The notes below the pieces were generated by a model. That model was not told where the DNA came from and did not search any database. It worked only from the letters and a program-made list of their open reading frames with translations. A program made the position numbers and the translations under genes. From the NCBI GenBank assembly GCA_965221455.1, contig OZ244890.1, forward strand, positions 283,031 through 347,030: a stretch of 64,000 nucleotides of DNA, read 5' to 3'. The stretch comes from Gammaproteobacteria bacterium. GTDB taxonomy: Bacteria; Pseudomonadota; Gammaproteobacteria; Eutrophobiales; Eutrophobiaceae. Shown in pieces: positions 32,108-51,500 of the stretch. Positions within the stretch are counted from its first letter, which is position 1; each line of letters starts with the position of its first letter.

Positions 32108-32411
32108 AATCATAAATAACCTGCACGCAATGTTGAAACAAGGCAAGGATAACGCCCTGTTGCGTTTCAGTTTAGGTAACGAATACCTCAAGTCAGAAGA
32201 ATATGAAACGGCCATTGAACATCTGCATCACGCATTAAAACAGGATCCGGACTACTCCGCCGCCTGGAAACTCTATGGCAAGGCATTGATCGGCGCTGAT
32301 AAAAATCTTGAGGCTATCGCCGCCTATAAACTGGGCATTGAGAAAGCAGAAAAAAAAGGCGATATCCAGGCCGCCAAAGAAATGAAAATCTTTCTTAAAC
32401 GATTATTGTGA
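32097..32411 (+). CDS. Small tetratricopeptide-repeat protein
   Basis: The 104-aa ORF has a TPR-like helical repeat pattern, ALLRFSLGNEYLKSEEYETAIEHLHHALKQDPDYSAAWKLYGKAL. It overlaps the previous gene by 11 nt. Confidence 0.55.
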   Translation: MSNEIINNLHAMLKQGKDNALLRFSLGNEYLKSEEYETAIEHLHHALKQDPDYSAAWKLYGKALIGADKNLEAIAAYKLGIEKAEKKGDIQAAKEMKIFLKRLL

Positions 32412-32666
32412 ACGTCCGCTCTCAATGCCGGCAGTACATTCACAATAACGTGTATATCGTGGACAGATAGCAGCGCAGCGCGTGTCCTTGATGCTGCATT
32501 GCCGACACGCCTGCCGACAGCAGGTCTGACCTGAACGGCAATGACCTGGTTCACACTCGGCGACGGTCGTCGCAACGGGCGAGCCATCTCGTCATCCGTA
32601 ACAGTCATGGTTACGGCAGAGGATGCGCCAGCCACCCATGAAAACAAACTTCTATCTATTGACCCA

Positions 32667-35600
32667 CTACCGCAAGAGTGCCTCGATATTCGTCCTTACC
32701 TCATTGAACGATGGATTGCCCGGAATGGTATCGAGCAGGCCCACCGTGTCGCGAATACCAAACAGATAGCGGCCCAGCAAGAGTCCGTCACTCTGGTTAG
32801 GATCACCACCGCTGCCATCCACGTCAAGACGACCGCTGGCGAAAGCTCCCGCAATATTCGTCGTGACCGCATTGAACGAGGGACTCCCCGGAATCGTATC
32901 AAGCAAGCCCGCCGCATCACGAATACCAAACAGGTAGCGGCCCAGCAAGAGTCCGTCACTCTGGTTAGGATCACCACCGCTGCCATCGACATCAAGACTC
33001 ACCGCCGCCATCTCCGTCACCGTCACCGTTACGGTGGCCGCCGTGACGGTACGATAGTTGGTGTCGGTACTGGTCACCGTATGCGTGAGTTGCACGGTCT
33101 CGTCGTCTGTATCAGCGTCTTCCACTCCCGTCACGGTGATGGTTTTGGCGGTATTCCAGTCGGTGGTGCCAAACATCAGTGAGGTGGGACTCACCGTCAC
33201 AGCAGCGGCATTGGATTGGGTCACGCTAATCGTCACTGCTTCCGTCGGTGGGGTATTCAAGCGCAGCGTATACATGCCGGTACCTCCACGTTCATGGACT
33301 GTCAGCGTCGTGGAACTCACAGCCACGCCCGGCGTGTCGTTATCATTCAAGGTCACAGCGACGGGATCTATCGTCACGCCACTGGCATAGTCGGCATCTG
33401 TGCTTGTCGCCGTATGCGTGAGTTGCACGGTCTCGTGGTCTGTATCCGTATCCTCAACACCACTCACGGTCACCGTTTGGGCACTGTTCCAGTTGTCTGT
33501 GGTAAACGTCAGTGAGGTGGCACTGAGGGTCACTGCAGTGGTATCGGGATTGGTCACCATAATCGTCACCGGTACGGTCGGTCGCTTGGTCAACGCCAGT
33601 GTATAGGTGCCACTGCCAGCTTCGTCGACCGCCAGCGTGGTCGGACTCACGGTCACGCCCGCCGTCTCATCATCATCCACCGTCACCGCCACCGCACTTA
33701 TCGTCACGGTACCCCCATTGTAGCCAGGGTCGGTACTGGTCGCCGTATGCGTGAGTTGCACGGTCTCGTCGTTCGCATCCGTGTCCTCAACACCACTCAC
33801 GGTCACCGTCTGGACACTGTTCCAGTTGTCTGTGGTAAAGGTCAGTGAGGTGGCACTGAGTGTCACCGCCGTGTCATCGGGATTGCTCACGCTAATCGTC
33901 ACCGGCGCCGTCGGTAGGGTAGACAGGCTTAAACCATACTCGCCGGTCTCACCCTCATTGACCGCCAGCACGTTCAGACTCACGGTCACGCCCGCCGTGT
34001 CGTTATCCGTGACATTCACGGTCACGGCGGGCGGGGTCAGCGCGGCATAGGTCGCATCGCTGCTGCGCACCGCATGGGTCAGTTGCACGCTCTCGTGGTT
34101 CGTATCAGCGTCCTCAATAGCCATTACCGTCACCCTCTGCGGCATATTCCAGTTGCTCGTGCTAAAGTCCAGGCTGGACGGGGTCGCCGGACTCACCGTC
34201 GCCACATCGGCATTGAACGTTTGCGGCAGAATGCTCACGGTCGCCGATGGTCGGCTACCCAGTCGGATGGTATAGGTCGCCGTGAGTCCCTCAGTCACAG
34301 TCAACGTGGTCGGACTCAGCGTAACACCCACCATATCGTTATCTGTTATGGTGATGGCTGGACCGGGAAACACAACCGAGTCGTAAGCTCCGTCGCCGCT
34401 GCCGACATCCGGAAAATTCAGCACCACCGTCTCATCATCTACATCGTCATCCTCAACAGCGGTCACCGTTACCGTCTGCGGGATGTTCCATTGGCGGGTG
34501 GTAAAGGTCAGGCTGATCGGACTCACGGTCGCAGCATTTCTATTGCTGCTTCCTATAGAGAAAATTTCCACCGACCCTGTCGGTTCAGTCGCCAACCTTA
34601 CCGTAAACCCGACAGTCTCGCCCTCATTGAGCACCAGCGCGGGCGGACTCACGACGATACCCGCCGCGCCGTTATCCGTGACACTCACGGTCACGGCGAG
34701 CGGCGTCACCCCGGCATAGCCCGTATCAGCGCTGCTCAGCGCATGACTCAGTTGCACGCTTTCGCTGGTCGTATTCGCGTCCTCAACAGCCGTCACGGTC
34801 ACGGTTTGGGCGGCATTCCAATTGACTGTGGTAAAGGTCAGTGGTGAGGTCACGGTCACCGCAGCATTGTCACTGGTCACGCTAATCGTGACCGCGTGCG
34901 TCGGTAGGGTATTCAAGCGCAGCGTATACTCGCCGGTCCCGCCTTCAAAGACCGCCAGCGTGGTCGTACTCATGGTCACGCCCGGCGCGTCGTTATCCGT
35001 GACATTCACGGTCACAGGGGGCGAGTTCACCCCGGCATAGCGCGTATCGCTGCTGCTCAGCGCATGGCTCAGTTGCACACCGCTCTCGCTGGTCCTGTTA
35101 TTGTCCTCGGCACCCATCACCGTCACCGTCTGCGCCTGGTTCCAGTTATTCCTGGTAAAGGTCAGCGACGCAGTGGCGGTGACGGCGGGATTGTCACTGC
35201 TCACGCTAATCGTGACCGCGTGCGTCGGTAGGGTATTCAGGCGCAGCGTATACTCGTTGGTCTCGCCCTCATTGACCGCCAGCGTGGTCGTACTCACAAT
35301 CACGTTGGCATCGTTATCCGCGACATTCACGGTCACGGGGGGCGGCGTCAGCGCAGCATAGTTCGCATCACCGCCGCTCACCGTATGGGTCAGTTGTACG
35401 CCGCGTTCGTTGGTCGCATTCGCGTCCGCAGCACCCGTCACGCTCACGGTTTGGGCGGCATTCCAGTTGATTGTGCTAAAGGTCAGGGTCGCTGGGCTCA
35501 CGGTCACCGCAGCATTGTCACTGCTCACGGCAATCGTCACCGCCACCGTCGGTCGGCTGCCCAGCACCAGCCCATAGCCGGTGCTGCTGCCCTCGGTCAC

Positions 35601-38231
35601 ATTCAGCGCGGTCGGCGACACCCGCACACCCGCCACCGGGCCTACCGGGTCGGACGTCAGGCTATCGCCTCCCGCATTCGGATAACTCGCCATCACGCGC
35701 AACCAACTGCCTATCTGTGATTGGTCTGATGCAATGGTGTACGTGGCGGTATTGTTCGTCCCCGGTGCGGCGGTAAACGGTCCCGCCGAGGCGGTCGCTG
35801 TCTGCCATTGATATGTAATGGTGCCGACATCGGTATTGGGTGAGGCGTCCGCGTCGGTGACCGACCCCGCCGTCAGTGTGACGCCGACTCGGGCAGTGCC
35901 GGTGAGTGTGCCGATGGCACCGCGACGGTCAGCCCGCACGATATTGGAGAACAGGGTGTCGTTGAAATCCCCGCTCTGGGTGACCCGCACCCGCAGCCAG
36001 TTGCCCTGGTCCGCCGCTTGTACCGTGTAGGTCGCCGCCGTGCCGCCCGGGCTGATAGCTGTTGCACTGCTACAGTTTTGAGTGGTGCAGCGTTGCCATT
36101 GCCGGGCGCTGATATTGACGGTCAACCCGGGATGGCTCAGCGCACCGGCGGTCAGGATATCGCCGACATTGGCCGGGGTGTTGGGGGTACTGTCCTGGAT
36201 GGCGCCTAATGACACGAGCGTCGCATCATGAATATGGTTGTCGGTGGCACTCAGTGCACCGATGGCTTGTTTGGTGATAGCTGCGGCACCGGCCCCGATA
36301 TTGCACAGCGACGAGCTGGTTTGTACGGTTTGTTCGGTGTCGGTCGTGGTCCCTGAGCGCACTCCTAAATCACCGCTGGCGTTACATAAAGTGTCCAATA
36401 AGACCACGCCGTTGTTGGCGGACGGTCGGTAAAACAAGACGCCCGGCCCCGGGATAGCGGTCCATGAGGGGTTCGGACGGGACAGGCCGGACTTCAGGCT
36501 TATACTCTCGAAGAGTGTGCCGGTGCTCGGGGTCGCCTGCCCGGTTGTGATGTGATTATTGATACTTACAGTATCTGCTCTACCGGGGTATTGAACTACC
36601 GTGAGTTGCAACCGACCATCGTTCTCGCGGACGAGTATCGCGCCTGTGATGTCAGCCCCGTTTCTCTCCGTCGCATTGGTATACCCGGCCGGGCCGTTGA
36701 CGAGATAGTTCCTCCAAAAGATCAGATTCGGACGGGTCTCGGTGCCCCCGTGGTTGGTGGTGTCGGTGTCGTAGGCATTGGCACAATGGCTGCCCGCCCC
36801 GGCATTACAGGTGCGTGTCTGGTTCTTGTCGGTGATATTGCCCGCACTCCAGGCGCCCCAGCCGTCGTCGTGGTTTATACCAGAATCTGCCGCCGCTATA
36901 GACTGCTTGGTGAGGTCGTAGGGAGTGGATAGACACAGGTCTCGCAGACCTGGGTGTGTTGTTGTTGTTACTTGTGTCGTGGCGGACTCACGCAACATTA
37001 CGTTGACGGACGTACAAGAAATTTGCGTGATTACTTCACCGTTACTGGCTATAGACAGCCTGCCTGATCCTGGAATAGCGGCGAAGCCGCTGTTAAACGG
37101 ATTGTGCCAGTCGTTGTCGCCTGCATTCCAGGCGGCGAGGAAGTTGGCGAAGGCCGGGAACGCCCTGAGTAGGGTGGTTCGGAAAGGGACCGACAAGTTG
37201 AGGGGTCCTGACTGCCGGTCATACCACGCCTCCAGCGTGGTCGGGCTGATAATCGCCGACATGTCTAGCGGCCTCCACCCGCCGGTCGGATGCCCGGACT
37301 CCGGGTATAGGACCGGATTGGTGCCTTCCGGGCAGGGGGTGTTCGGGCCGGGAGTGCCGACGACGTTGACACTGCACCTCCGCCGGGTCGTCACGGTCTC
37401 ATTATTGATTGACCCGGTGTAGGTGTACGATGCCGTATCCGGTGCTTCTGCGTACATCGGGGTATTGAAATCACGATGTAGTAGTGATGTGCCGATACTG
37501 CCTGCGTTGTATGTATTGACCACCGCTTGCGGGGTATGGCAGCGGGCGTCTCTTTGCACTGTTGTTCTCTCCGGGCGGAGCAGGCTGCCAGTGCCGCCTC
37601 CCTCAATATAGGACTGCGGGTGGCTGTTGTTTCTGCGGCAGCGGACGGTGAATGCTTGCCCGTCTGCGTCATAGACGGTGACCGTGACGTTCAGTCTTGG
37701 GTTGCGCACTCGTCGGGCGATGTTAATAGGACCAATAGAGGTCGTACCATTCACCATAGTAGCATTGCAAAACTCGCTTACGATATCGTCAGTAATCTCG
37801 CCATCTGTGCTGCAATTGTCGTGGGTACCAGAAAAGCCCCAGTTGTCGCCCGCAGGGGTATGACCTAGATTCCCCGCAGTACCACTATGATCGTCGTGGA
37901 CAGCGCTGCTACGTATGAACCAGGGCACGACGACCACATTGTTGCCGACCTGGACGTTGTATCGCCCGTTCAGGAAGGCAAAATTGGAGATGCCGTCACC
38001 ATCTGCGGAGCGGCTTGTGAGACCGCCGCCCAGATTATACCTGTGGCCGCTACCGCCTGTATCCGGGATGATGTAATTGGCGTCGGGTACCCCCGCCACC
38101 CGAAAACTGTCCGCAAGCGGAGCCGTCGCCAGTGCCGCCGGGCTTACCCATGCCGTCATTAGGGCGACGGCGGCTATCATCCCGCGCCAAGACCCCGACC
38201 GTTCGGCGGTTGACCGCAGTTGCCTCGTCAT
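32667..38231 (-). CDS. Giant secreted multi-repeat protein A. Order: signal peptide, ~750-aa Cys-containing N-terminal region, 2 Ig-like modules, ~10 Calx-beta/cadherin-like repeats, tandem dockerin-type C-terminal pair
   Basis: The open frame runs 32667..38624 (1985 aa). A signal peptide MTRQLRSTAERSGSWRGMIAAVALMTAWVSPAALA begins at M132 (ATG 38229-38231). Upstream of that the frame reads HHAPRTT repeats encoded by a heptamer SSR, so it is likely untranslated. The repeats have the form VTVSPTTLxVxEG..TYTLxL...PTxxVTIxV...TFTTxNWNxAQTVTVxGVEDxDxxDE.VQLTH with acidic linkers such as VTDNDTPG and VTVDDDETAG. The C-terminus is LDVDGSGGDPNQSDGLLLGRYLFGIRD twice, a dockerin-like calcium-binding loop plus helix. 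GC3 is very high compared with flanking genes. Confidence 0.8.
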   Translation of the reverse strand: MTRQLRSTAERSGSWRGMIAAVALMTAWVSPAALATAPLADSFRVAGVPDANYIIPDTGGSGHRYNLGGGLTSRSADGDGISNFAFLNGRYNVQVGNNVVVVPWFIRSSAVHDDHSGTAGNLGHTPAGDNWGFSGTHDNCSTDGEITDDIVSEFCNATMVNGTTSIGPINIARRVRNPRLNVTVTVYDADGQAFTVRCRRNNSHPQSYIEGGGTGSLLRPERTTVQRDARCHTPQAVVNTYNAGSIGTSLLHRDFNTPMYAEAPDTASYTYTGSINNETVTTRRRCSVNVVGTPGPNTPCPEGTNPVLYPESGHPTGGWRPLDMSAIISPTTLEAWYDRQSGPLNLSVPFRTTLLRAFPAFANFLAAWNAGDNDWHNPFNSGFAAIPGSGRLSIASNGEVITQISCTSVNVMLRESATTQVTTTTHPGLRDLCLSTPYDLTKQSIAAADSGINHDDGWGAWSAGNITDKNQTRTCNAGAGSHCANAYDTDTTNHGGTETRPNLIFWRNYLVNGPAGYTNATERNGADITGAILVRENDGRLQLTVVQYPGRADTVSINNHITTGQATPSTGTLFESISLKSGLSRPNPSWTAIPGPGVLFYRPSANNGVVLLDTLCNASGDLGVRSGTTTDTEQTVQTSSSLCNIGAGAAAITKQAIGALSATDNHIHDATLVSLGAIQDSTPNTPANVGDILTAGALSHPGLTVNISARQWQRCTTQNCSSATAISPGGTAATYTVQAADQGNWLRVRVTQSGDFNDTLFSNIVRADRRGAIGTLTGTARVGVTLTAGSVTDADASPNTDVGTITYQWQTATASAGPFTAAPGTNNTATYTIASDQSQIGSWLRVMASYPNAGGDSLTSDPVGPVAGVRVSPTALNVTEGSSTGYGLVLGSRPTVAVTIAVSSDNAAVTVSPATLTFSTINWNAAQTVSVTGAADANATNERGVQLTHTVSGGDANYAALTPPPVTVNVADNDANVIVSTTTLAVNEGETNEYTLRLNTLPTHAVTISVSSDNPAVTATASLTFTRNNWNQAQTVTVMGAEDNNRTSESGVQLSHALSSSDTRYAGVNSPPVTVNVTDNDAPGVTMSTTTLAVFEGGTGEYTLRLNTLPTHAVTISVTSDNAAVTVTSPLTFTTVNWNAAQTVTVTAVEDANTTSESVQLSHALSSADTGYAGVTPLAVTVSVTDNGAAGIVVSPPALVLNEGETVGFTVRLATEPTGSVEIFSIGSSNRNAATVSPISLTFTTRQWNIPQTVTVTAVEDDDVDDETVVLNFPDVGSGDGAYDSVVFPGPAITITDNDMVGVTLSPTTLTVTEGLTATYTIRLGSRPSATVSILPQTFNADVATVSPATPSSLDFSTSNWNMPQRVTVMAIEDADTNHESVQLTHAVRSSDATYAALTPPAVTVNVTDNDTAGVTVSLNVLAVNEGETGEYGLSLSTLPTAPVTISVSNPDDTAVTLSATSLTFTTDNWNSVQTVTVSGVEDTDANDETVQLTHTATSTDPGYNGGTVTISAVAVTVDDDETAGVTVSPTTLAVDEAGSGTYTLALTKRPTVPVTIMVTNPDTTAVTLSATSLTFTTDNWNSAQTVTVSGVEDTDTDHETVQLTHTATSTDADYASGVTIDPVAVTLNDNDTPGVAVSSTTLTVHERGGTGMYTLRLNTPPTEAVTISVTQSNAAAVTVSPTSLMFGTTDWNTAKTITVTGVEDADTDDETVQLTHTVTSTDTNYRTVTAATVTVTVTEMAAVSLDVDGSGGDPNQSDGLLLGRYLFGIRDAAGLLDTIPGSPSFNAVTTNIAGAFASGRLDVDGSGGDPNQSDGLLLGRYLFGIRDTVGLLDTIPGNPSFNEVRTNIEALLR

Positions 38232-38541
38232 ACCCGTGAGCGTGTACGTTTTTGCCTCTTGATGCAGGCGGTGCTGTGGAGTATTGCGCGGGTCGCCGTC
38301 AACGCAGCGGGTGTTGCTTCTGTTGCGGTCCGCCAACGCTTCGCTCAAGCGGCGGTTCCAGCACGCTACCTTGCCGTGGATCTGTGGACGGCATCCATGC
38401 GTCAGAGGATGCAGAACCTTATGTCGGGCACTCCCTCCATCCACGGTCACGCATGCGGTGCGTTCGGTCATGGACCAGTTATGCCGGGGCCTGGTGGCGC
38501 AGCGGTCTGCGTGAGTATTGCGGTGGTGGCACCACTTCCAC

Positions 38542-38599
38542 GTGGTGCGTGGTGCGTGGTGCGTGGTGCGTGGTGCGTGGTGCGTGGTGCGTGGTGCGT
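38542..38599. repeat. Heptanucleotide simple sequence repeat (GTGGTGC)x8.3, perfect
   Basis: Read directly from the sequence: cgtGGTGCGTGGTGCGTGGTGCG...gtt. It lies ~310 nt upstream of the probable start of giant gene A, just downstream of a TTGACA-18nt-TAGACT promoter-like element. The unit length is not a multiple of 3. The equivalent site upstream of gene C (~51035-51050) has only an unexpanded gtggtggtg-like remnant. Confidence 0.9.
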
Positions 38600-38601
38600 T
38601 A

Positions 38602-38631
38602 AGTCTAAGTCGTTTTGTCAACATATGTCAA
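38602..38631 (-). promoter_or_regulatory. Putative sigma70-type promoter for giant gene A (-35 TTGACA, 18-nt spacer, -10 TAGACT)
   Basis: The minus-strand sequence is cTTGACAtatgttgacaaaacgacTTAGACTtaa, followed immediately by the heptamer SSR. The homologous stretch upstream of gene C has a degenerate -35 (ACGACA/CTGACA). This is pattern-based only. Confidence 0.3.
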
Positions 38632-39205
38632 GTTCTCTCTAGTCAGTCATCCAGATTGCTATGCTGTCAATTGTACCATTATCCGCGCAGTATTAAATAC
38701 ATCATATCGTGCACCACACCACATATGGCACTGTTTGTTGTGATTGATCATGTACTGTACAGGTCGTGAACAATCCCGGCTCTTTGTGAGAGGCGTATGC
38801 TGTTGTATTTGATTCGCCCATCCGCCGGTTTTTGGTTCAACCGATTGAGCGCTGCAAACCGTCAGTCTTCGTGAATGTCGAGAACGCCTCTGCTTCGGTA
38901 CTGTTGACCGGTAGGCCCACCCAACCTTGCGCACGGTGCGCTTTCCGGCGACTGTTACCGCTGTGGCTCAGGGGCGGCGGGCAAACCCTGTGTCTCCCGG
39001 AGTTGCAGCACACGCAGACGCTGTGCCGCCATTGCATTGTGCATCCCCGCTTGTATCGCTTGACACCCGAGACGATAAACACTCTCAAGCCGATAAACCG
39101 GGTGCCGAGATTACACCCGTCTTTATCCTGCAATGTTGTTGCCGAACTGATACCGCCAGGCCTCTGCAAAGCCTGTGCAATGAACGGTCTGTCTATTGAC
39201 CCACA

Positions 39206-42200
39206 CTATCGCAAGAGTGCCTCGATATTCGTCCTTACCTCGTTGAACGATGGATTGCCCGGAATGGTATCAAGCAGGCCTACCGTATCGCGAATACCAA
39301 ACAGGTAGCGGCCCAGCATGAGACCGTCACTCTGGTTAGGATCACCGCCGCTGCCATCCACGTCAAGACGACCGCTGGCGAAAGCTCCCGCAATATTCGT
39401 CGTGACCGCATTGAACGAGGGACTCCCGGGAATCGTATCAAGCAAGCCCGCCTCATCACGAATACCAAACAGGTAGCGGCCCAGCATGAGACCGTCACTC
39501 TGGTTAGGATTACCGCCGCTGCCATCCACATCAAGACTCACCGCCGCTGTCTCCGTGACCGTCACAACCAGGGCGGCCGTCACGGCACGATAGGCGGTGT
39601 CCATACTCGTCACGGCATGACTCAGTTGTACGCGCTCGTCGTCCGTATCAGCGTCCCGGACACCCATCACCGTCACCGTTTGGGCACTGTTCCAGTTGTC
39701 CTCGGTAAAGGTCAGCGTCGCCGTCACCGTCACCGCATCTGTATCAGGACTGCTCACCGCAACCGTCACCGCCGCACTCGGCCGACTGGTCAACACCAGC
39801 ATATAGGTGCCGGATCCGCCTTCTCCCACCGTCACCCGGCCCGGCGTCAGCGTCAACCCCGCCGTATCATCATCATTCACCGTCACAGACACCGCCGCCG
39901 CCGTCACGGCAGCATAAGCAGTGCCGGTACTCGTCACAACATGACTCAGCTGCACACCGCTGGCGTCATTCGCATCAGCATCCTCAACACCCATCACCGT
40001 CACCGTCTGCGCTGTGTTCCAGTTGTCCTCGGTAAAGGTCAGCGTCGCCGTCACCGTCACCGCCGCCGTATTAGCACTGCTCACCGCAATCATCACCGCC
40101 GCATCCGGCTGGCTGGTCAACGCCAGCATATAATTGCCGCTACCGCCTTCCAAAATCGTCAGCGCGGTCTGACTCACCGCCACGCCCGCTGTATCATCAT
40201 CTCTCACCGTCACATCAACAGCGGCTATCGTCACCGCACCAGCATTGTAGGCGCTATCCGCACTTGCCGACGTATGGCTCAGCCTGACACTTGCATTGTT
40301 CGTATCACCATCCTCAACACCCGTCAGCGTCACTGTCTGGCCCCGGTTCCAGTTGTCCGTGGTAAAGGTCAGGGTCGCCGGACTCGCGGTCGCCCCGGCG
40401 GTATTGCCATTGCTCACCGTCACCCTCACCTCGTCCGTCGGTCGGGTATTTAATACCACCATATAGCTGCCGGTACCGCCTTCATCAATCGTCGGGTTCG
40501 TCGGAGCCACGGTCACGCCCGCCACGTCGTTATCCGCCACGGTCACCGGGAGCGTCGTCGTCACCGCACTGCCGTTGTAGGTACTATCCATGCTGGTCGC
40601 CATATGCGTCAAAAGCACCGTCTCATTGATCCCGTTCGCATCCTCAACCGCCACCACCCTCACCGTCCGGGCCTGGCTCCAGTTGCTTGTCGTGAACATC
40701 AGCGGGGTGCTGCTCACGGTCGCCGCAGCGGTATTGTCACTCGTTACCATAATCGTCACATCGTTGCGCGGCCGGGTCGCCAGCGCCAGCGTATAGCTGC
40801 CCGTGTCGCCTTCACCCACCGTCAACCTGCCCGGCACCACGGTCATACCCGCGATATCATCATCCGTCACTGTCACATCGACAGTGCCTATCGTCAACGC
40901 ATTAGCATTATAGGCAGGATCCGCACTCACTGCCCTGTGACTCACTATGATGCTTGCATCGTTTGCATCAGGGTCCTGGACACCACGCACTGTCACTGTC
41001 CTGGCCGTGCGCCAGTCGCTGGTGGTAAAGGTCAGACTCGTCGGACTCGTGTTTACCACACCACTATTGGGGATCAACAAGTCCACCGTCACAACGGCGA
41101 CCGGTCGACTGGTTAGCGCCAGCATGTAGGTGCCACTACCGCCTTCAGGGACCCTCAGCGTAGACGGCATTACCGTCACACCCGCCGTCTGGATATCTTC
41201 CACAGTCACGGTGACAGCGTTTATCGTCACCGCAGGAGTACCTGCATAGGCAGGACCGCCGCCGTTAAACGTATGCGTCAGGGAGACGGTCTCGTCGTTC
41301 GCATCAGCATCCGCAACACCCATCACCGTCACCGTCTTGGCCGTGTTCCAGTCGTCCATGTCGAAGGTCAGCATCGCTGGACTCACCGACGCCGCTTCAG
41401 CGTCGTCAGTCATCACCGTAATCGTCATTGCCGCCGTCGGCCGGGTATCCAACACCAGCGTATAGGTGTTGTTGTTCGTGCCCTCATTGAACGTCAACGA
41501 GGTCTCACTCACCGTCACGCCCGCCGTCTCGTTATCATCCACAGTCACGCTGACATCGGCTATCGCCACAGCATTACCGTTATAGGTATTATCCGTGCTG
41601 CTCGCCGTATGCGTGAGTTGCACATCAACTTCGTTGTTCGCGTCAGCATCCTCCTCTCCCGTCACTGTAAACGTCTTACCCGTGTTCCAGTCGCTCGTGC
41701 TAAAGGTCAGTGTTGTCGGGCTGACCGACACCGCACCCATGTCACCACTCCCCACCGTAATCATCACGGCATGCGCCGGTTGGGTATTCAACATCAGCAT
41801 ATACTCGACGTTAGCACCTTCGGCGACCTCCAGCCTGGTGGGACTCACGCTCACACCCGGCGTATCGTTATCGCTCACGTTCACGCTGACCGCAGCCGGC
41901 ATCACCGCATTATAGGCGATGTCGCTACTGCTAACTGTATGAGTCAGGCTCGCACGCTCGTTGGTCGAGTTCGCATCTTCAGCACCCGACACGGTGACGA
42001 TTTGTGGTATATTCCAACGGTCTCTGGTAAACATCAGCGGCGTGGCACTGACTGTCGCAGCCTCGTTGTTGCTCGCTACGGTTATCATTACAGCAGTACT
42101 CGGCTGGCTGCCCAAAACCAGCATATAGGTACCGGTACCCCCTTCACTCACGGCCAAGGTGTCAGTACTTACGTTGACGCTTACCATTTCATCATCTGTC

Positions 42201-44938: not shown

Positions 44939-45505
44939 CAGTTATTCCACCATCAGTTCTACAACGATTGATAATATCCCACATTAATTAACGTCATGCG
45001 CTCCCACTGGCAAACCTACCGTTTACCATGTTCATCACCTTCACATCCACGCTGTTTGATATTCGACCAGCGACCGCTGATCGTTGCACGACCGACTACA
45101 GACTGCTGAGCGTACCAGAAAAACACACAATAACTCAAGACCTAATCAATGCTTCTCCGAACGTTTCACGTTTTCACCCATCCCTGATTGATGTCAAGAC
45201 ACTTCTTTTGAAGTCGATGACCTGCAAACCTGCAGCTCAGGATTCCGCCTCCGAGAGGTCATCATTTTTGGCAACGTACACCCGTCTGCAATCGGCGATA
45301 TTTTTTCCTTATTCCCTTGATATTTACAGAAAGCACTACCGGGTTGCTATTATCGTCCGCCAGTCGGTCTATAGCCCAGGAAAGGATACGCGCTGTTAAT
45401 TCGGTACATGTTGCTTGAAATTTTCAATCGGCATGGCCGTACTCACAGCAATAAAAAACAATGAGTCAGCCACCCATGAAAAAACAACTTCCGGCTATTT
45501 CCCCA

Positions 45506-48500
45506 CTACCGCACACGCACAAGCGCTCCGATATTCCTCGTTACGTCGTTGAACGATGGATTGCCCGGGATAGTATCAAGCAAGCCCACAGTGTCACGAA
45601 TACCAAACAGATAACGACCTATCATCAGACCATCACCTTGATTCGCAGCACCGCCGCTGCCATCCACATCAAGACGACCGCTGGCGACAGCCCTTGCAAT
45701 ATTCGCCGTGACCACACTGAACGATGGACTCCCCGGGATAGTATCAAGCAAGCCCACCATATCACGAATACCGAACAGGTAGCGGCCTATCATAAGCCCG
45801 TCACCCTGGTTAGGTGCACCGCCGCTATTATCCACATCAAGACTAATCGCCAGCTCCGTGACAGTCACAAGCACGGCGTCTGGCGTCACCGCAGCATAGC
45901 CTGTATCAGTGCTGCTCACCGTATGCGTTAGCCTGACGCTCTCATTGTCCACATCAACGTCCTCAACACCCGTCACCGTCACCGTCTGGACCCTGTTCCA
46001 CTCGTCTATGGCAAAGGTCAGAGTCGCAGGACTCACCGTCGCCTCAGTCGCATCAGCACTCGTCACCGCAATCCTCACCTCCGCACGCGGCTGGCTGGTC
46101 AACACCAGCGTATAGGTCCTGGTATCATTTTCGGTAACGCTCAGTGTGGTAGGAGTCACCATCACGCCTGCCGTCTCGTCATCATTCACCGTCACGGTGA
46201 CAGCGTCTATCGTCACCGCAGGGTTAGCATCTGCATAGGCAGGTCCGCCGCCGCTAAACGTGTGCGTCAGAGAGACGCTCTCGTTGTTCGCATCAAGATC
46301 CTGCTCACCCGTCACCGTCACCATCTTTGGCGTATTCCAGTCGTCCATGGCAAAGGGCAGTGTCGCTGGACTCACCGACACCGCTCCATCATCGTCAGAC
46401 ATCACCGTAATCACCATCGCCGCCGACGGCTGGGCATCCAGCACCAGCGTATAGGTGGTGGTGTTCGTGCCCTCATCGAACATCAGCTCGGTCTCACTCA
46501 AAGTCACGCCCGCCGTCTCGTCATCATCCACCGTCACAGTGACCCCGGCTATCGTCAAAGCAGGGTTAGCATCTGCATAGGCAGGACCGCCGCCGCTAAA
46601 CGTGTGCGTCAGAGAGACGCTCTCGTTGTTCGCATCAGCATCCGCAATACCTGTCACCGTCACCGGCTTCGGCGCGTTCCAGTCGGCCATGGTAAAGGTC
46701 AGCGTCGCTGGACTCACCGATGCCGCTCCCTCGTCGTCAGACATCACCGTAATCACCATCGCCGCCGTCGGCTGGGTATCCAACACCAGCGTATAGGTGG
46801 TGTTGGCCGTGCCTTCATTGAACATCAGCTCGGTCTCACTCAAAGTCACGCCCGCCGTCTCGTCATCATCCACCGTCACGGTGACCCCGGCTATCGTCAA
46901 AGCAGGGGTGGCATTTGCATAGGCAGGTCCGCCGCCGCTAAACGTGTGCGTCAGAGAGACAGTCTCGTTATTCGCATCAGCATCCTCAACACCCGTCACC
47001 GTAAACACCTTGGGCGTATCCCAGTCGCCCATGGTAAAGCTCAGTGTCGATGGACTCACCGACGCCGCTTCAGCGTCGTTACTCATCACCGAAATCGTCA
47101 TATCCGCCGACGGCTGGACATCCAGCACCAGCGAATAGGTGGTGTTGGTCGTGCCCTCATCGAACGTCAGGTTGGTCTCACTCACCGTCACGCCCGCCGT
47201 CTCGTCATCATCCACCGTCACGGCGACCCCGGCTATCGTCAAAGCAGGGGTGGCATCGGCATAGGCAGGTCCGCCGCCGCTAAACGTGTGCGTCAGAGAG
47301 ACAGTCTCGTTGTTCGCATCAGCATCCTCAACACCCGTCACCGTAAACGTCTTGGGCGTATCCCAGTCGCCCATGGTAAAGCTCAGTGTCGATGGACTCA
47401 CCGACGCCGCTTCAGCGTCGTTACTCATCACCGAAATCGTCATATCCGCCGACGGCTGGACATCCAGCACCAGCGTATAGGTGTTGTTGTTCGTGCCCTC
47501 ATTGAACATCAACTCGGTCTCACTCACCGTCACGCCCGCCGTCTCGTCATCATCCACCGTCACGGAGACAGCGGTTATCGCCACCGCATTACCATTATAG
47601 GTATTATCCGTGCTGCTCGCCGTATGCGTGAGCTGCACATTGACTTCGTTGTCCGCGTCAGCATCCTGCTCTCCCGTCACCGTCACCGTCTTACCCGTGT
47701 TCCAGTCGGCCGTAGTAAAGGTCAGTGTTGTCGGGCTGACCGACGCCGCACCCATGTCGCCACTCGCCACCGTAATCATCACGTCCGCCGCCGGTTGGGT
47801 ATTCAGCATCAGCATATACTCGACGTTAGCACCTTCGGCGGGCTCCAGCCTGGTGGGACTCACGCTCACACCCGGCGTGTCGTTATCCCTCACGGTAACG
47901 GCCACAGTAGTCAGCATCAACGGTCGATAGAGCACATCGCTGCTATTATCCACTGTATGCGCCAGGCTGACGTTTCCGTCGGTCGCATTACTATCCTCAA
48001 CACCCATCACCGTCACCGTCTTGGCCGTGTTCCAGTCAACATTGGTAAAGGTCAGTGATGTCGGGCTGACCGTCGCCGCTCCCGTGTCGCCAGTCGCCAC
48101 CACCATAATCGTCACATCCGTCATCGGCCGAGTCTCCAGCATCAGCGTATAGCCGCCGCTACCGCCCTCACTGACCTCCAGCGTGGACGCATTCAAAGTC
48201 ACGCCCGCCGTGTCGTTATCATCCACATTAACGGTGACACCAGCTATCGTCACCGCATTACCATTGTAGGTCGCATCCGTGCTCTCCGCCGTATGCGTGA
48301 GCCGCACACTGACTTCGTTGTTCGCGTCATCATCCTGCTCACCCGTCACCGTCACCATCCGGGCCACGTTCCAGTTAGCACCGGTAAAGGTTAGTGTTCC
48401 CGGGTTGACCGACGCCGCATCCGCGTCGCCACTCGCCACCGTAATCACCACGTCATTCGCTGGCTGGCTGGTCAACATCAGCGTATAGATGCCGGTCTCT

Positions 48501-50770
48501 CCTTCATTCATGTCCAGTGTGGTAGGAGTCACAGTCACGCCCGCCATATCGTTATCCGTGACACCCACAGTCACGGCGGGCGGCGTCAGCCCAGCATAGC
48601 CCGCATCACTGCTGCTCACCGCATGACTCAGTTGCACACCGCTTTCGTTGGTCGCATTAGCGTCCTCAGCACCCGTCACCATCACGGTTTGGGCGACATT
48701 CCAATTGACTGTGCTAAAGATCAGGGGCGAGGTTGCGGTCACTGCGGGATTGTCACTGGTGACGCTAATCGTCACAGCGTCGGTCGGTTGGCTGCCCAGC
48801 GCCAGGTTATAGCTGGTGGTGGTGCCCCCTTCGGTGACATTCAGCGCGGTCTGCGACACCCGCACACCCGCGACCACTACCGCGCCGGACGTCAGGCTAT
48901 CGCCCCCCGCATTCGGATAACTCGCCATCACACGCAACCAACTGCCTATTTGTGATTGGTCTGAGGCAATGGTGTACGTGGCGGTATTATTGGTCCCCGG
49001 TGCGGCGGTAAACGGTCCCGCCGAGGCGGTCGCTGTCTGCCATTGCCAGGTAATGGTCCCGACATCGGTATTCGGTGAGGCGTCCGGGTCGGTGACCGCG
49101 CCCGCCGTCAGCGTGCCGCCGACTCGGGCAGCGCCAGTGAGTGTGCCGATGGCACCGCGACGGTCAGCCCGCACGATATTGGAGAACAGGGTGTCGTTGA
49201 AATCCCCGCTCTGGGTGACCTGCACCCGCAGCCAGTTGCCCTGGTCCGCCGCTTGTACCGTGTAGGTCCCCGCCGTGCCGCCCGGGCTGATAGCTGTTGC
49301 ACTGCTACAGTTTTGAGTGGTGCAGCGTTGCCATTGCCAGGCACTGGCATTGACGGTCAACCTGAGATGAGTCAGCGCACCGGAGATCAAGATATCGCCG
49401 ACATTGGCCGGGGTGTTGGGGGTACTGTCCTGGATGGCGCCTAATGACACGAGCGCCGCATCATAAATAAAGTTGTCGGTAGCACTCAGCTCACCGATGA
49501 CTTGCTTGGTGATATCCGAGGCACTCGCCCCGATATTGCACAGCGACAGCGACAGCGGCGAATTAGCTTGTGCGGTTTGTTCGGTGTCGGTCGTGGTCCC
49601 CGAGCGAACCCTTAAATCACCGCTGGCGGTACATGAACTGTCTAACAAGACCACGCCGTTGTTGGCGGACGGTCGGTAAAACACGACACCCGGCCCCGGG
49701 ATAGCTGTCCATGAGAGGTTCGGACGGGACAGGCCGGGCTTCAGGCTTATACTCTCGAAGAGTGTGCCGGTGCTCGGGGTCGCCTGCCCGGTGGTGATGT
49801 GTGCAGTCACCGAGTTCGTGCCGCCGGTGGTACGGACACTCTGGAGTTGCAGCCGACCATCATTGTTGTTGCGGGAGAGTGTTACGCTTATGACGTCAGC
49901 ACCGTTTCTTGCCGTTGCATTGGTATGCCCGGCCGGGCCGTTGACGAGATAGTTCATCCAAAAGGTCTCACTCGGACGGGTCTCGGTTTGCCCGTGGTTG
50001 GTGGTGCCGACACTGTAATCATTGGTACAACGACCGCCCGTCCCGGCATTACAGGTGTGCGTCTGGTTCTTGTCGACGATGTTGGCCGCACTCCAGGCAC
50101 TCCAGCCATTGTCGTAGCCTAACTCAGAAGCTGCCGCAGCCACAGACTGCTTGGTGATATTGTAAGGGGTGGATTGACAAAGCCTAAGCAGACCCGAATT
50201 TATGTTAGCGGAATAATCTATGGCCAAGAGACCTGTGGAGTCGCCGAACTCACGAAATCGTGCTTGTGCGCTCTCCATAGCGGTAGCCGGAAGACACTGC
50301 ATCTCAACTATTTGATCGAAACGAGTCCCAGTCCCACCGCCTGCTGCAAATAACCTGCCGAGTCCCGGAATAGTGGCGTAGACTTCAAACGGGTTGTGCC
50401 AGTTGTTGTCGCCCGCAGTCCAGGCGGTCATGAAGCTGGCAAAGTTCGGGAACGCCCCACGTAGGGCAGTTCTAAAATTTCCTGTCTGCCGGTCATACCA
50501 CGCCTCCAGCGTAGTCGGGCTGTCATTGTCCGGCGTGACCAGTTGACTCCACCCGCCAGTCGGGTACACGACCGGACCGGGACCTTCCGGGCAGGGGTTG
50601 TTCGGGCCGGGAGTGCCGACGACGTTGACACTGCACGTCCGCCGGGTCGTCACCGTCTCACTATCGATTGACCCGGTGTAGGTGTACGATGCCGTATCAT
50701 TAGTCTGCGCCCGTGCCGCCGGGCTTGCCCATGCCGCCATCAGGGCAACGGCGACCATGACTGCTGTCAT
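45506..50770 (-). CDS. Giant secreted multi-repeat protein C, with the same architecture as A, plus an array of near-identical 114-aa repeats
   Basis: The open frame runs 45506..51139 (1877 aa). The probable start is M124 (ATG 50768-50770), which begins the signal peptide MTAVMVAVALMAAWASPAARA. Its N-terminal ~750 aa are co-linear and highly similar to gene A (e.g. ASYTYTGSIDSETVTTRRTCSVNVVGTPGPN). The C-terminus has a dockerin-like pair, LDVDNSGGAPNQGDGLMIGRYLFGIRD and LDVDGSGGAANQGDGLMIGRYLFGIRD. Confidence 0.8.
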   Translation of the reverse strand: MTAVMVAVALMAAWASPAARAQTNDTASYTYTGSIDSETVTTRRTCSVNVVGTPGPNNPCPEGPGPVVYPTGGWSQLVTPDNDSPTTLEAWYDRQTGNFRTALRGAFPNFASFMTAWTAGDNNWHNPFEVYATIPGLGRLFAAGGGTGTRFDQIVEMQCLPATAMESAQARFREFGDSTGLLAIDYSANINSGLLRLCQSTPYNITKQSVAAAASELGYDNGWSAWSAANIVDKNQTHTCNAGTGGRCTNDYSVGTTNHGQTETRPSETFWMNYLVNGPAGHTNATARNGADVISVTLSRNNNDGRLQLQSVRTTGGTNSVTAHITTGQATPSTGTLFESISLKPGLSRPNLSWTAIPGPGVVFYRPSANNGVVLLDSSCTASGDLRVRSGTTTDTEQTAQANSPLSLSLCNIGASASDITKQVIGELSATDNFIYDAALVSLGAIQDSTPNTPANVGDILISGALTHLRLTVNASAWQWQRCTTQNCSSATAISPGGTAGTYTVQAADQGNWLRVQVTQSGDFNDTLFSNIVRADRRGAIGTLTGAARVGGTLTAGAVTDPDASPNTDVGTITWQWQTATASAGPFTAAPGTNNTATYTIASDQSQIGSWLRVMASYPNAGGDSLTSGAVVVAGVRVSQTALNVTEGGTTTSYNLALGSQPTDAVTISVTSDNPAVTATSPLIFSTVNWNVAQTVMVTGAEDANATNESGVQLSHAVSSSDAGYAGLTPPAVTVGVTDNDMAGVTVTPTTLDMNEGETGIYTLMLTSQPANDVVITVASGDADAASVNPGTLTFTGANWNVARMVTVTGEQDDDANNEVSVRLTHTAESTDATYNGNAVTIAGVTVNVDDNDTAGVTLNASTLEVSEGGSGGYTLMLETRPMTDVTIMVVATGDTGAATVSPTSLTFTNVDWNTAKTVTVMGVEDSNATDGNVSLAHTVDNSSDVLYRPLMLTTVAVTVRDNDTPGVSVSPTRLEPAEGANVEYMLMLNTQPAADVMITVASGDMGAASVSPTTLTFTTADWNTGKTVTVTGEQDADADNEVNVQLTHTASSTDNTYNGNAVAITAVSVTVDDDETAGVTVSETELMFNEGTNNNTYTLVLDVQPSADMTISVMSNDAEAASVSPSTLSFTMGDWDTPKTFTVTGVEDADANNETVSLTHTFSGGGPAYADATPALTIAGVAVTVDDDETAGVTVSETNLTFDEGTTNTTYSLVLDVQPSADMTISVMSNDAEAASVSPSTLSFTMGDWDTPKVFTVTGVEDADANNETVSLTHTFSGGGPAYANATPALTIAGVTVTVDDDETAGVTLSETELMFNEGTANTTYTLVLDTQPTAAMVITVMSDDEGAASVSPATLTFTMADWNAPKPVTVTGIADADANNESVSLTHTFSGGGPAYADANPALTIAGVTVTVDDDETAGVTLSETELMFDEGTNTTTYTLVLDAQPSAAMVITVMSDDDGAVSVSPATLPFAMDDWNTPKMVTVTGEQDLDANNESVSLTHTFSGGGPAYADANPAVTIDAVTVTVNDDETAGVMVTPTTLSVTENDTRTYTLVLTSQPRAEVRIAVTSADATEATVSPATLTFAIDEWNRVQTVTVTGVEDVDVDNESVRLTHTVSSTDTGYAAVTPDAVLVTVTELAISLDVDNSGGAPNQGDGLMIGRYLFGIRDMVGLLDTIPGSPSFSVVTANIARAVASGRLDVDGSGGAANQGDGLMIGRYLFGIRDTVGLLDTIPGNPSFNDVTRNIGALVRVR
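46260..47627. repeat. Tandem array of at least 4 near-identical 342-bp (114-aa) coding repeats inside giant gene C
   Basis: The antisense ORFs at 46260, 46602, 46944 and 47286 are spaced exactly 342 bp apart and encode almost identical peptides. The sense protein repeats GVTVSETELMFNEGTNNNTYTLVLDVQPSADMTISVMSNDAEAASVSPSTLSFTMGDWDTPK.FTVTGVEDADANNETVSLTHTFSGGGPAYA with minimal variation. Confidence 0.85.
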
Positions 50771-51500
50771 CTCGCGCCGAACTCCTGGCCCGCTGGCAAG
50801 TTCGGCGGTCGACCGCAGTTTCCCCGTGATGCCCGCAAAAGTGTACGCTTTTGCATAGTGATAGCGCATGTGCAGTGAGGTGTTGCGCCTATCGCCGTCA
50901 ACGCAGCGGGCGATGCCACGGTGCTTGCGCGTCAGACGATGCAGAATACCGTGTTGTGTACACAACACGTCCGCAGCAACGTGCGCTTCACATTCGGTCA
51001 TGACAATGTTAAGCCTGTGTCTGGTGGAGGTGTGGTGGTGGTGCTTGTCGCACGACACCAGCGTGGTGGTAAGGCGTTTACGTAATTTTGTCAGCATATG
51101 TCGTGTTCTCTCTCGTAAGTAGTCCAGATTTACCCCCACATACCCATCCCGCCCGTGACTGTTTCCAGTCCCCGCTGTGGACAGTTAGTTGAAGTGGATG
51201 CTATTATAGCCAACAGATACCTCGATTGATACCACTATCCGATACCCATGCGCCCAGGCGCCCAGGCGCGGTGGTGAGGGCAAAATCGGATACAGATACG
51301 AATGATGGGTACTTGAGTCTGAGCTATCGTGTCCAGTGAAGACCTTGAACGGCAACAATATCACCATTCCCTGCTGTCGCCGTCGTGCTATCACGAAATC
51401 GGAACGGCGGGCAGGAATCCGAAAATTTCGCCAGCAACGCCACCGCACGTAATATTCCGGCAGTATCTTTTTTTCAAGATGCCGTGTCGCATGGACCGGG

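Follow-up and report, generated by a model that had tools for sequence, protein, structure and literature searches.

Three giant repeat-protein genes in a GC-rich block belong to a mosaic multigene family with a dockerin-like C-terminal module in a gammaproteobacterium

The window, that is the whole 64,000-nucleotide stretch of DNA analysed, carries a GC-rich block of three giant genes that belong to a family of at least 38 members, which together occupy ~170 kb (~7% of the 2,504,188-bp chromosome) and are scattered, mosaic in structure and GC-rich wherever they are located. In the reading preferred here, whose chances we put at about even, the block genes are part of a recombining, possibly phase-variable family of surface-docked proteins, most likely a switchable coat or adhesin set. 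What the data show directly are the modular architecture, the size and mosaicism of the family, the hypervariable patch, the composition, the tracts and the profile-level homologies; that the proteins lie on the surface, bind Ca2+, dock there, are switched and serve as adhesin or coat is inferred.

The block is bordered by trkA-trkH-methyltransferase-TPR on one side and by ampE-ampD on the other side. Its three paralogous minus-strand ORFs have exactly the lengths given in the initial annotation (1985, 1910 and 1877 aa), and the gaps of 581 and 567 bp agree with the ~570 bp stated there. Each protein had also been described as a signal peptide followed by 9-16 repeats, which holds for gene 2 only, as head modules come first in genes 1 and 3 and the repeats number 8, 16 (15 plus one degenerate) and 9 in genes 1, 2 and 3, respectively. 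The mature products carry net charges of -93 to -150 and are almost devoid of Lys. The features are as follows.

32412..51500, no strand: GC-rich block, from the TPR gene stop to ampE, with the three family genes and their own upstream regions
32667..38624, minus strand: gene 1, maximal ORF of 1985 aa, probable CDS start at 38234 (MTRQ...) or 38180 (MIAAV...)
38625..39205, minus strand: gene 1 upstream region, GC 0.53, promoter-proximal ~250 nt conserved with the L007 paralog
38602..38631, minus strand: sigma-70-like site TTGACA-18-TAGACT, 10/12 matches, the island's best on this strand, overlapping the ATG of the gene 1 ORF
38541..38599, minus strand: heptanucleotide tract (GCACCAC) x 8.4, a candidate contingency tract (TRF, 100% matches)
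38181..38540, minus strand: gene 1 leader, stop-free in the gene's frame only
38127..38180, minus strand: gene 1 putative Sec-type signal peptide MIAAVALMTAWVSPAALA, read from the translation rather than by a predictor
36864..38126, minus strand: gene 1 orphan N-terminal modules, aa 167-587, common only to a few paralogs, e.g. P0020
36228..36863, minus strand: gene 1 GWG head module, aa 588-799, conserved scaffold plus hypervariable patch
35628..36227, minus strand: gene 1 pair of ~95-aa units with QWQRC / WQWQTATAS motifs, at DNA level 93% identical to the pair in gene 3
33003..35627, minus strand: gene 1 stalk, 8 Calx-beta-like repeats of ~107-113 aa
32670..33002, minus strand: gene 1 C-terminal dockerin-like two-F-hand module, 111 aa
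39206..44938, minus strand: gene 2, 1910 aa, exact match to database protein P0058, with neither head modules nor a family-type leader
44849-44938, minus strand: gene 2 putative signal peptide, from the translation
39542-44848, minus strand: gene 2 stalk, 16 repeats
39209-39541, minus strand: gene 2 C-terminal module
45506..51139, minus strand: gene 3, exact match to database protein P0001, maximal ORF of 1877 aa, probable CDS start at 50770
50708-50770, minus strand: gene 3 putative signal peptide, from the translation
50108-50707, minus strand: gene 3 orphan module
49463-50107, minus strand: gene 3 GWG module
48866-49462, minus strand: gene 3 QWQRC/WQWQ unit pair
45848-48865, minus strand: gene 3 stalk, 9 repeats
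46162..47580, minus strand: young internal tandem amplification in gene 3, repeats 5-8, 342 nt x 4.1 copies at 90% identity
45509-45847, minus strand: gene 3 C-terminal module

The gene 1 ORF starts with MLTK, read from ATG-TTGACA, and because the promoter-like site overlaps these first codons the 5' extension is probably not the true N-terminus, in line with the earlier proposal of untranslated 5' extensions, which probably applies to genes 1 and 3. The sigma-70-like element is also conserved upstream of the L007 paralog, and the conservation of the promoter-proximal ~250 nt of gene 1 in this paralog indicates that the duplicated unit includes the promoter. The gene 1 tract lies 3 nt downstream of the -10-like hexamer and, as a perfect short tandem tract next to the promoter of a putative surface-protein gene, shows one of the marks of a contingency locus. 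Genes 2 and 3 have no tract. In paralogs elsewhere the tracts consist of 7- or 8-nt units in ~2 to 35 copies, unit and copy number varying from one paralog to another (~7 copies in L007, ~35 in L006, ~15 in P0018 and ~33 in P0021, a comparison between paralogs). Slippage would leave the promoter spacing unchanged, since the tracts sit downstream of the -10 element. No Rfam family was found in the leaders, and substitutions were flat across codon positions in the leader and equally in the coding control. The promoter-proximal simple-sequence tracts do not appear in the initial annotation.

The non-repeat N-terminal part preceding the stalk spans 833 aa in gene 1 (aa 167-999) and 614 aa in gene 3 (aa 145-758); a search with the latter, which shares module A with gene 1, found no relative outside this chromosome. 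The GWG module exists in 48 distinct copies, in which entropy is ~0 on the scaffold and rises to ~3 bits at positions 88-105 and 118-125. A search of its profile against PDB sequences gave no match, the QWQRC/WQWQ unit pair of gene 3 gave only noise against PDB sequences, and only noise was likewise returned by Pfam at E<=10 for the orphan modules of gene 1; the ~95-aa QWQRC/WQWQ units may, as a guess from sequence, be Ig-like. A diversity-generating retroelement was considered for the GWG hypervariable patch and rejected, as the copies differ in length there and the block holds no reverse-transcriptase-sized ORF. The head modules are a feature that the initial annotation had passed over.

The stalk repeats (~107-114 aa) share the core LTFTxxNWNxxQTVTVxGxEDxD and acidic DNDxxG-type linkers, and ~32 copies at 321-357-nt spacing confirm the ~110-aa core and acidic linkers described earlier. 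The former assignment as Calx-beta- or cadherin-like was upheld in part, as a relation to Calx-beta is suggested at the profile level and the direct Pfam matches to Calx-beta and Cadherin are lacking at E<=10, isolated pieces included. Specifically, Calx-beta (PF03160) matched neither the whole proteins nor a two-repeat piece, none of the curated Pfam or NCBIfam models for Calx-beta, cadherin and dockerin matched the block proteins, and the sole Pfam signal on the repeats was fn3_6 at 28-44 bits, mostly summed. Alignment of 45 repeats with five Calx-beta domains by hhalign gave E 1.1e-4 with a probability of 56% over 82 collinear columns, and with an HMM of the window repeats two Calx-beta domains of P0028, both confirmed by Pfam, scored 45-47 bits and one domain of P0037 scored 22 bits. 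Against PDB sequences, the repeat profile had weak generic Ig-like matches only and the whole block proteins had none. The repeats thus appear related to Calx-beta at the profile level only. Like the Calx-beta repeats of NCX exchangers, integrin beta4, ADGRV1 and bacterial giant proteins, they are ~105-115-aa units in long tandem arrays with the motif LxF...xxxVxVxxxxDxxxExxE in the C-terminal half, but they have a short AVTVSPxSLTF in place of the DGTAxAGxDY segment of Calx-beta. The repeat sequences contain acidic motifs of the forms E-D-x-D-x-x-x-E and D-N-D. The linkers (VTDNDTPG, VNDNDTAG) do resemble the cadherin DxNDN junctions, as had been noted; membership of the cadherins did not hold, with no Pfam match to Cadherin (PF00028) and no LDRE-type motif in the repeat alignment.

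All three proteins end in a tandem 2 x ~55-aa LDVDGSGG...GRYLFGIRD unit, earlier called a tandem dockerin-like pair. The tandem units and the dockerin relation were retained; in place of two dockerins, the AF2 model (pLDDT 94.8) predicts a pseudo-twofold six-helix domain, so that the tail is modelled as one bipartite 111-aa module with two dockerin-type F-hand loops. The model had no structural match to solved dockerins, the tail lacks their compact ~60-70-aa fold, and Dockerin_1 (PF00404) matched neither the whole proteins nor the isolated 111-119 aa tail at E<=10. Two tandem F-hand calcium-loop-helix segments are nevertheless predicted from its sequence, three of nine tail relatives tested pass Dockerin_1 (39.8, 32.5 and 25.2 bits, cut-off 22.9), and the top PDB matches of a profile of tail relatives are solved dockerins (1ohz_B and 2ccl_B, loop plus helix at E 1.6e-5; also 4fl4_A, 4uyp_B and 3ul4_B). 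Invariant or nearly so in 30 tail relatives are D4, G9, D16, G17 and R22, together with D60, D62, G65, D72, G73 and R78. The tail shares with non-cellulosomal dockerin-like modules (PF00404) the two F-hand segments, DxDxxG...D followed by LxxRYLxG, and the C-terminal position on diverse secreted passengers: in a widespread family with 1473 relatives it is C-terminal in 92 of the 134 examined, on unrelated passenger proteins, and on the same chromosome it is also carried by a trypsin-like protease and a Spondin_N protein. No cohesin-like gene was found in the window. A profile search with the tail alignment, in a collection of genome contigs excluding this genome, retrieved only five distant Burkholderiales-type loci, and a literature search on the tail motif and on similar families gave nothing relevant.

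The description of a giant adhesin- or scaffold-like surface family is supported in so far as the proteins appear secreted and have Ig-type repeats with acidic linkers, the surface being their presumable location. Scans of the block proteins with Pfam and NCBIfam revealed no RTX-type families, and, in keeping with the earlier observation on T1SS, T5SS and sortase, no T1SS, autotransporter barrel or sortase signal was seen in them; neither was an outer-membrane export system or anchoring signal in the window. In the proposed mechanism, the proteins would be Sec-exported, very acidic, Thr/Val/Ala-rich and modular products of a lineage-specific multigene family, with 0-9 head modules (conserved scaffold plus hypervariable patch) as the putative ligand-binding or exposed end and 0-24 Calx-beta-like beta-sandwich repeats with acidic linkers as a stalk, possibly stiffened by Ca2+. 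The near-invariant 111-aa tail would dock all members, the protease and the spondin-domain protein non-covalently to a common cell-surface receptor. Diversity would arise as paralogs recombine or undergo gene conversion and as repeats are gained and lost, and expression of individual genes would probably be switched via slippage of the promoter-adjacent 7/8-nt tracts.

The family count combines a first homology search (22 paralog clusters on one contig), which was not exhaustive and missed gene 2, with an exhaustive tail search. It comprises 35 tallied proteins (161 kb, 6.4% of the chromosome) plus P0069, P0070 and gene 1, hence at least 38; the tallied proteins have 0-9 GWG modules and 0-24 repeats, and 32 of them have the tail. 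The nearest paralog of gene 1 switches between successive 60-aa windows, and 20 of 45 pairs combine windows of >=98% identity with windows of <75%. Sister genomes, at 88-91% RpoB identity, may also carry the family. The relatives of the organism, for which no host is known, are MAGs of groundwater or sediment type.

The sharp change in composition reported at the TPR stop and at ampE is evident by every measure. For 32.4-51.5 kb, GC is 0.58-0.60, as opposed to 0.42-0.49 in the flanks. In 1-kb windows it is 0.58-0.63 from 33 to 51 kb versus 0.38-0.49 in the flanks; GC3 is 0.69, 0.67 and 0.68 in genes 1, 2 and 3, and 0.35-0.52 in 26 of 27 flanking ORFs (0.58 in the remaining short one). The high GC3 claimed for the codons was confirmed; GTC and GCC did not prove to be dominant, as GTG, ACG, ACC and GCG lead. 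The composition looks foreign, being unlike that of the host genome, and the same contrast is found at paralog loci elsewhere, GC3 being likewise ~0.71 in paralogs adjoining dnaX-recR or restriction genes. Of the earlier proposal of horizontal acquisition with amplification in situ, the foreign-looking composition stands, and amplification in place is too narrow for at least 38 scattered genes. There is no tRNA within 15 kb of the block, no integrase-sized ORF in it and no flanking direct repeat among the 20 largest repeat families shown, all of which are internal to the block; a search for an empty site in metagenomes with the flanking methyltransferase returned one contig only, 54% identical and non-syntenic.

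It could be argued that the GC richness is not foreign and was produced in place by GC-biased gene conversion among paralogs or by amino-acid composition, since the family recombines and GC2 is also raised in the block genes through their Thr/Ala/Gly/Val-rich composition. We consider this quite unlikely. At 4-fold degenerate sites GC is 0.76 in the block genes versus 0.48 in the flanks, for which amino-acid usage cannot account, the upstream non-coding regions are GC-raised too (0.53-0.56), and GC3 is lowest in the tail, where homogenisation is strongest (0.50-0.59, versus 0.65-0.77 in the diverging parts), the opposite of what simple conversion predicts; GC-biased gene conversion as the sole cause was rejected on the 4-fold and tail values. 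That the array is an assembly artefact or consists of decaying pseudogenes is highly improbable, for although repetitive genes are prone to mis-assembly and truncated copies occur in the metagenome assembly ERZ25072283, the three reading frames are intact at 5.6-6.0 kb, the products of genes 2 and 3 match exactly proteins predicted from one 2.5-Mb contig (NCBI and ENA), and related paralogs are found on independent contigs. The three genes have different architectures and 74-90% DNA identity in shared segments, which are shared as a mosaic, so that they are distinct rather than an assembly duplication, and the question raised earlier, whether three copies exist, is very probably answered in their favour.

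Two functional alternatives to a switchable coat or adhesin set were weighed. The proteins might be ordinary envelope, matrix or biofilm components (S-layer-like or a sheath), whose copies serve dosage or niche, with no switching and with tracts and mosaicism as by-products of repetitive DNA; the repetitive, acidic, Thr/Val-rich composition, the wide occurrence of similar repeat proteins in free-living bacteria of several phyla and tracts not placed to alter the -35/-10 spacing would suit this. It is nonetheless unlikely, given that hypervariability is limited to defined positions of a conserved head module, that strong homogenisation of the tail contrasts with divergence of the heads, and that many paralogs have a perfect 7/8-nt tract at the same place upstream, in widely differing numbers of copies. 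Less probable again is a cellulosome-like assembly, in which the tail would plug enzymes and binding proteins into a cohesin scaffold for polymer capture or degradation and the repeat proteins would be spacers or substrate binders. Scans of family members revealed no glycoside hydrolase, CBM or cohesin, the only hits of this kind being weak summed matches to beta-sandwich models, and of the 38 proteins that bear the tail or are related, ~35 are repeat proteins of non-enzymatic type whose heads are hypervariable. The dockerin relation of the tail, its presence on the protease and the Spondin_N protein and its relatives on many unrelated passengers speak for such an assembly; the tail is without the canonical dockerin size and fold, and a passage in PMC5244752, citing Peer et al. 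2009, gives the function of non-cellulosomal dockerins as unknown.

With LapA, MpIBP, SiiE and BapA, giant Ca2+-dependent repeat adhesins of Gram-negative bacteria, the block proteins would share megadalton-class Ig-like repeat rods, acidic Ca2+-type linkers and a distal ligand-binding region. Those adhesins depend on type I secretion, carry RTX repeats at the C-terminus and a retention module at the N-terminus and usually occur once per genome, whereas the block proteins begin with a putative Sec signal, lack RTX nonapeptides, end in a dockerin-like tail and belong to a set of at least 38 paralogs. Neisseria Opa, Mycoplasma Vsa/Vlp and Helicobacter outer-membrane proteins resemble the block family as multigene sets of mosaic paralogs with conserved ends, hypervariable internal patches and perfect short 5' tandem tracts whose copy number differs between copies. 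They belong to host-restricted pathogens, and their tracts are part of the coding sequence or separate the -35 from the -10 element; in contrast, the organism here is uncultured and probably environmental, its tracts follow directly on the -10 element and switching is a proposal.

If a switchable coat or adhesin set is the right reading, the family would be a natural example of a streamlined free-living bacterium building and varying its outer face from a single docking tail, a Ca2+-type stalk of adjustable length and hypervariable heads that are shuffled, and non-cellulosomal dockerin-like modules would gain a testable role as a shared surface-docking handle. A bolder version, which we regard as rather doubtful, is that a small-genome environmental gammaproteobacterium devotes ~7% of its chromosome to a recombining, contingency-tract-switched surface repertoire resembling antigenic variation but outside any host-pathogen setting so far known and presumably under pressure from phages or grazers, with GWG as an undescribed fold that has a thrombospondin-repeat-like start and the shared expanded dockerin-like tail as a new Gram-negative surface-docking route. 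With the 7/8-nt tracts next to the promoter, the idea of switching is open to a direct test. Two unnamed units are offered for family curation, the orphan GWG head module and the LTFTxxNWNxPQTVTV repeat, a type that has no curated model and is widespread, occurring in the sponge symbionts AqS1 and AqS3, in Polyangiaceae and in Acidimicrobiales.

The sharp compositional change for which the GC-rich block at 32412-51500 had been singled out in the initial annotation was borne out at three levels. Calculated in 1-kb windows, GC is 0.58-0.63 across 33-51 kb versus 0.38-0.49 on either side; GC3 reaches 0.69, 0.67 and 0.68 in genes 1, 2 and 3, and lies at 0.35-0.52 in 26 of the 27 flanking ORFs, one short ORF having 0.58; fourfold degenerate sites have a GC of 0.76 in the family genes versus 0.48 in the flanks, demonstrating that the step is not caused by amino-acid usage. 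The codons held to dominate the block (GTC, ACC, GCC, GAC and GGC) were reproduced only for ACC, as the commonest are GTG, ACG, ACC and GCG. The three same-strand ORFs were recovered at exactly the lengths proposed, with measured gaps of 581 and 567 bp in agreement with the estimated ~570 bp:

32667-38624, minus strand, gene 1 ORF, 1985 aa
39206-44938, minus strand, gene 2 ORF, 1910 aa
45506-51139, minus strand, gene 3 ORF, 1877 aa

The left flank carries trkA, trkH, a methyltransferase gene and a gene for a small TPR protein, and the right flank ampE and ampD. The small TPR gene (32097-32411) and gene 1 are convergent with their stop codons 255 bp apart; no terminator-like hairpin on the strand of gene 1 was found between the two stops, and the sole one nearby (32375-32358) falls within the TPR gene.

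The block had been regarded as an island amplified in situ, an idea that had to be abandoned, since it holds three members of a recombining family of at least 38 genes scattered over the chromosome. The initial homology search uncovered 22 paralog clusters on a single contig of 2,504,188 bp (NCBI and ENA), and cluster look-ups and a search with the C-terminal 111-aa module (the tail) added further members. In total, 35 proteins were tallied, covering 161 kb or 6.4% of the chromosome, and inclusion of P0069, P0070 and gene 1 brings the family to at least 38 genes, about 170 kb and roughly 7%. One paralog adjoins dnaX-ybaB-recR and another restriction genes; at these other loci the paralogs have a GC3 of 0.71 versus 0.42-0.55 in their neighbours. 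The high GC wherever paralogs sit makes the "island" a property of the gene family rather than of the site.

The alignments show the family to be mosaic. The paralog closest to gene 1 switches between successive 60-aa windows of the subfamily alignment, windows of at least 98% identity stand beside windows below 75% in 20 of 45 paralog pairs, and among the three window genes the DNA blocks in common (74-90% identical) differ from one pair to another. On a related metagenome contig (L007), a family paralog is closely followed on its downstream side by an rve-type integrase/transposase fragment (11795-12193); insertion sequences may help to spread the family.

A foreign origin of the family is favoured because of the composition of both coding and upstream DNA. 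GC richness made in place by GC-biased conversion alone is disfavoured: the tail is the most homogenised segment, yet its GC3 of 0.50-0.59 (32670-33002, 39209-39541 and 45509-45847) is the lowest in each gene versus 0.65-0.77 in the repeat array (the stalk), the opposite of what such conversion alone would leave. Island hallmarks were lacking at the block, where neither an integrase-sized ORF nor a tRNA target was found, nor a flanking direct repeat among the 20 largest families listed. As for the host, its RpoB is 94% identical to that of "Gammaproteobacteria bacterium" MAGs and 81-82% to that of Rifle groundwater gammaproteobacteria, and closed sister genomes of 2.41, 2.32, 2.13 and 1.72 Mb are available at 88-91% RpoB identity.

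All three proteins begin with Sec-type signal peptides, as read off the translations, and are extremely acidic (net charge -93 to -150), rich in Thr, Val and Ala, and nearly devoid of Lys. The proposed order of a signal peptide followed by repeats holds for gene 2, in which 16 repeats (15 of them clear, the other degenerate) follow directly, and fails for genes 1 and 3, where 833 and 614 aa of other modules precede 8 and 9 repeats, respectively. These N-terminal parts comprise a GWG module of ~217 aa opening with GWGxWSxxNITDKNQTRTCNAG, paired ~95-aa units with QWQRC and WQWQTATAS motifs, and one or two orphan modules. None of them matched a Pfam model even at E<=10, and database relatives of the N-terminal 614 aa of gene 3 were confined to the same chromosome. 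Over 48 distinct copies, the GWG scaffold is almost invariant and encloses two hypervariable stretches that differ in length and reach an entropy of about 3 bits. Architectures across the family are combinatorial, with 0-9 GWG modules and 0-24 repeats, and of the 35 proteins tallied, 32 carry the tail.

The stalks of the block comprise ~32 repeat copies at a spacing of 321-357 nt, and their length is actively changing, as indicated by a recent amplification within gene 3:

46162-47580, minus strand, young internal tandem amplification, unit of 342 nt, 4.1 copies, 90% identity

The repeats had been described as cadherin/Calx-beta-like, a description that found no backing in Pfam: the curated models of these two families left them unrecognised, the only signal being a weak, mostly summed fn3_6 match, and an NCBIfam scan of the window proteins returned nothing relevant. 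An HMM built from the window repeats alone scored 45-47 bits on two Pfam-confirmed Calx-beta domains of database protein P0028, and when 45 repeats were aligned with five Calx-beta domains in hhalign, a collinear match of 82 columns resulted (E 1.1e-4, probability 56%). On these comparisons we call the units Calx-beta-like, presumed beta-sandwich repeats, outside the Pfam Calx-beta family, rather than Calx-beta, because the link is suggested at the profile level and the curated models are silent. The acidic EDxDxxxE and DNDxxG motifs would have a role with Ca2+. At 28-39% identity, the LTFTxxNWNxPQTVTV repeat type also fills giant proteins of Polyangiaceae, of Acidimicrobiales and of AqS1 and AqS3, both symbionts of the sponge Amphimedon, as well as Bacteroidota-like proteins.

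The tail is nearly identical among paralogs (96-100% throughout the subfamily alignment). Searched exhaustively with HMMER, a set of 1.84 billion representatives yielded 1473 relatives, mostly two ~55-aa units at the C terminus of unrelated passenger proteins. The window copy had no Pfam match, and three of nine relatives tested passed the Dockerin_1 gathering score. With a profile of 30 relatives, solved dockerins ranked top (1ohz_B, E 1.6e-5, followed by 2ccl_B, 4fl4_A, 4uyp_B and 3ul4_B), the aligned part being the calcium loop plus helix (F-hand). The AlphaFold2 model has six helices with internal twofold symmetry (pLDDT 94.8, pTM 0.87), which counts against canonical dockerin membership; instead of the dockerin-like pair first described, the tail is thus one expanded dockerin-related two-F-hand module. 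An identical tail ends the trypsin-like protease P0068 and the Spondin_N protein P0064, encoded outside the window on the same 2.5-Mb chromosome, the pattern expected of a common handle for docking or targeting. Among MAG proteins of Burkholderiales type, some whose passenger domains are unrelated (L001 7343-10204, L002 9311-10369) end in one or two LDVDGSGG...DGLL.R calcium-loop units closed by a conserved Cys pair, illustrating how broadly the module is reused.

As curated Calx-beta, cadherin or dockerin members, the window proteins were rejected. Of the initial reading, what survives is a set of giant secreted surface proteins that are built from repeats, related to dockerins and foreign-looking in composition; curated family membership and in-situ amplification fall away. 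The likeliest function, at about even chances, is a variable repertoire of adhesins or coat proteins docked at the surface; its main rivals are an assembly resembling a cellulosome and a purely structural role.

Besides the hypervariable heads, the island picture missed the promoter-adjacent simple-sequence tracts of the family. Many paralogs have a conserved upstream cassette in common with genes 1 and 3. In gene 1 its sigma-70-like site, the best of the block on the coding strand, overlaps the first codons of the ORF, which explains the recurrent "MLTK" start in gene calls as ATG-TTGACA. A leader of ~350 nt from tract to signal-peptide ATG is stop-free in the frame of the gene only (gene 1, 38181-38540; gene 3, 50771-51100), with 5-8 stops in the other two frames and the upstream ATG within the promoter-like element; its substitutions have no codon-position bias, a coding control being equally flat, and Rfam returned no family match for either leader. 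The tandem units, just past the promoter-like site, are 7-nt GCACCAC or 8-nt GCACCGCA / GCACCACA depending on the gene:

38631-38602, minus strand, sigma-70-like site TTGACA-18-TAGACT, gene 1
38541-38599, minus strand, perfect (GCACCAC) x 8.4, immediately downstream of that site
L007 (contig with a family paralog) 6809-6855, GCACCAC tract, about 7 copies
L006 (contig with a family paralog) 6170-6450, 8-nt tract, about 35 copies

The region upstream of gene 3 has no tract. The 7/8-nt tracts look like candidate phase-variation (contingency) tracts, but would lie after the -10 element. Copy number ranges from about 2 to about 35 across paralogs, and back-translated "APQHHSTT" runs correspond to about 15 copies in family protein P0018 and 33 in P0021.
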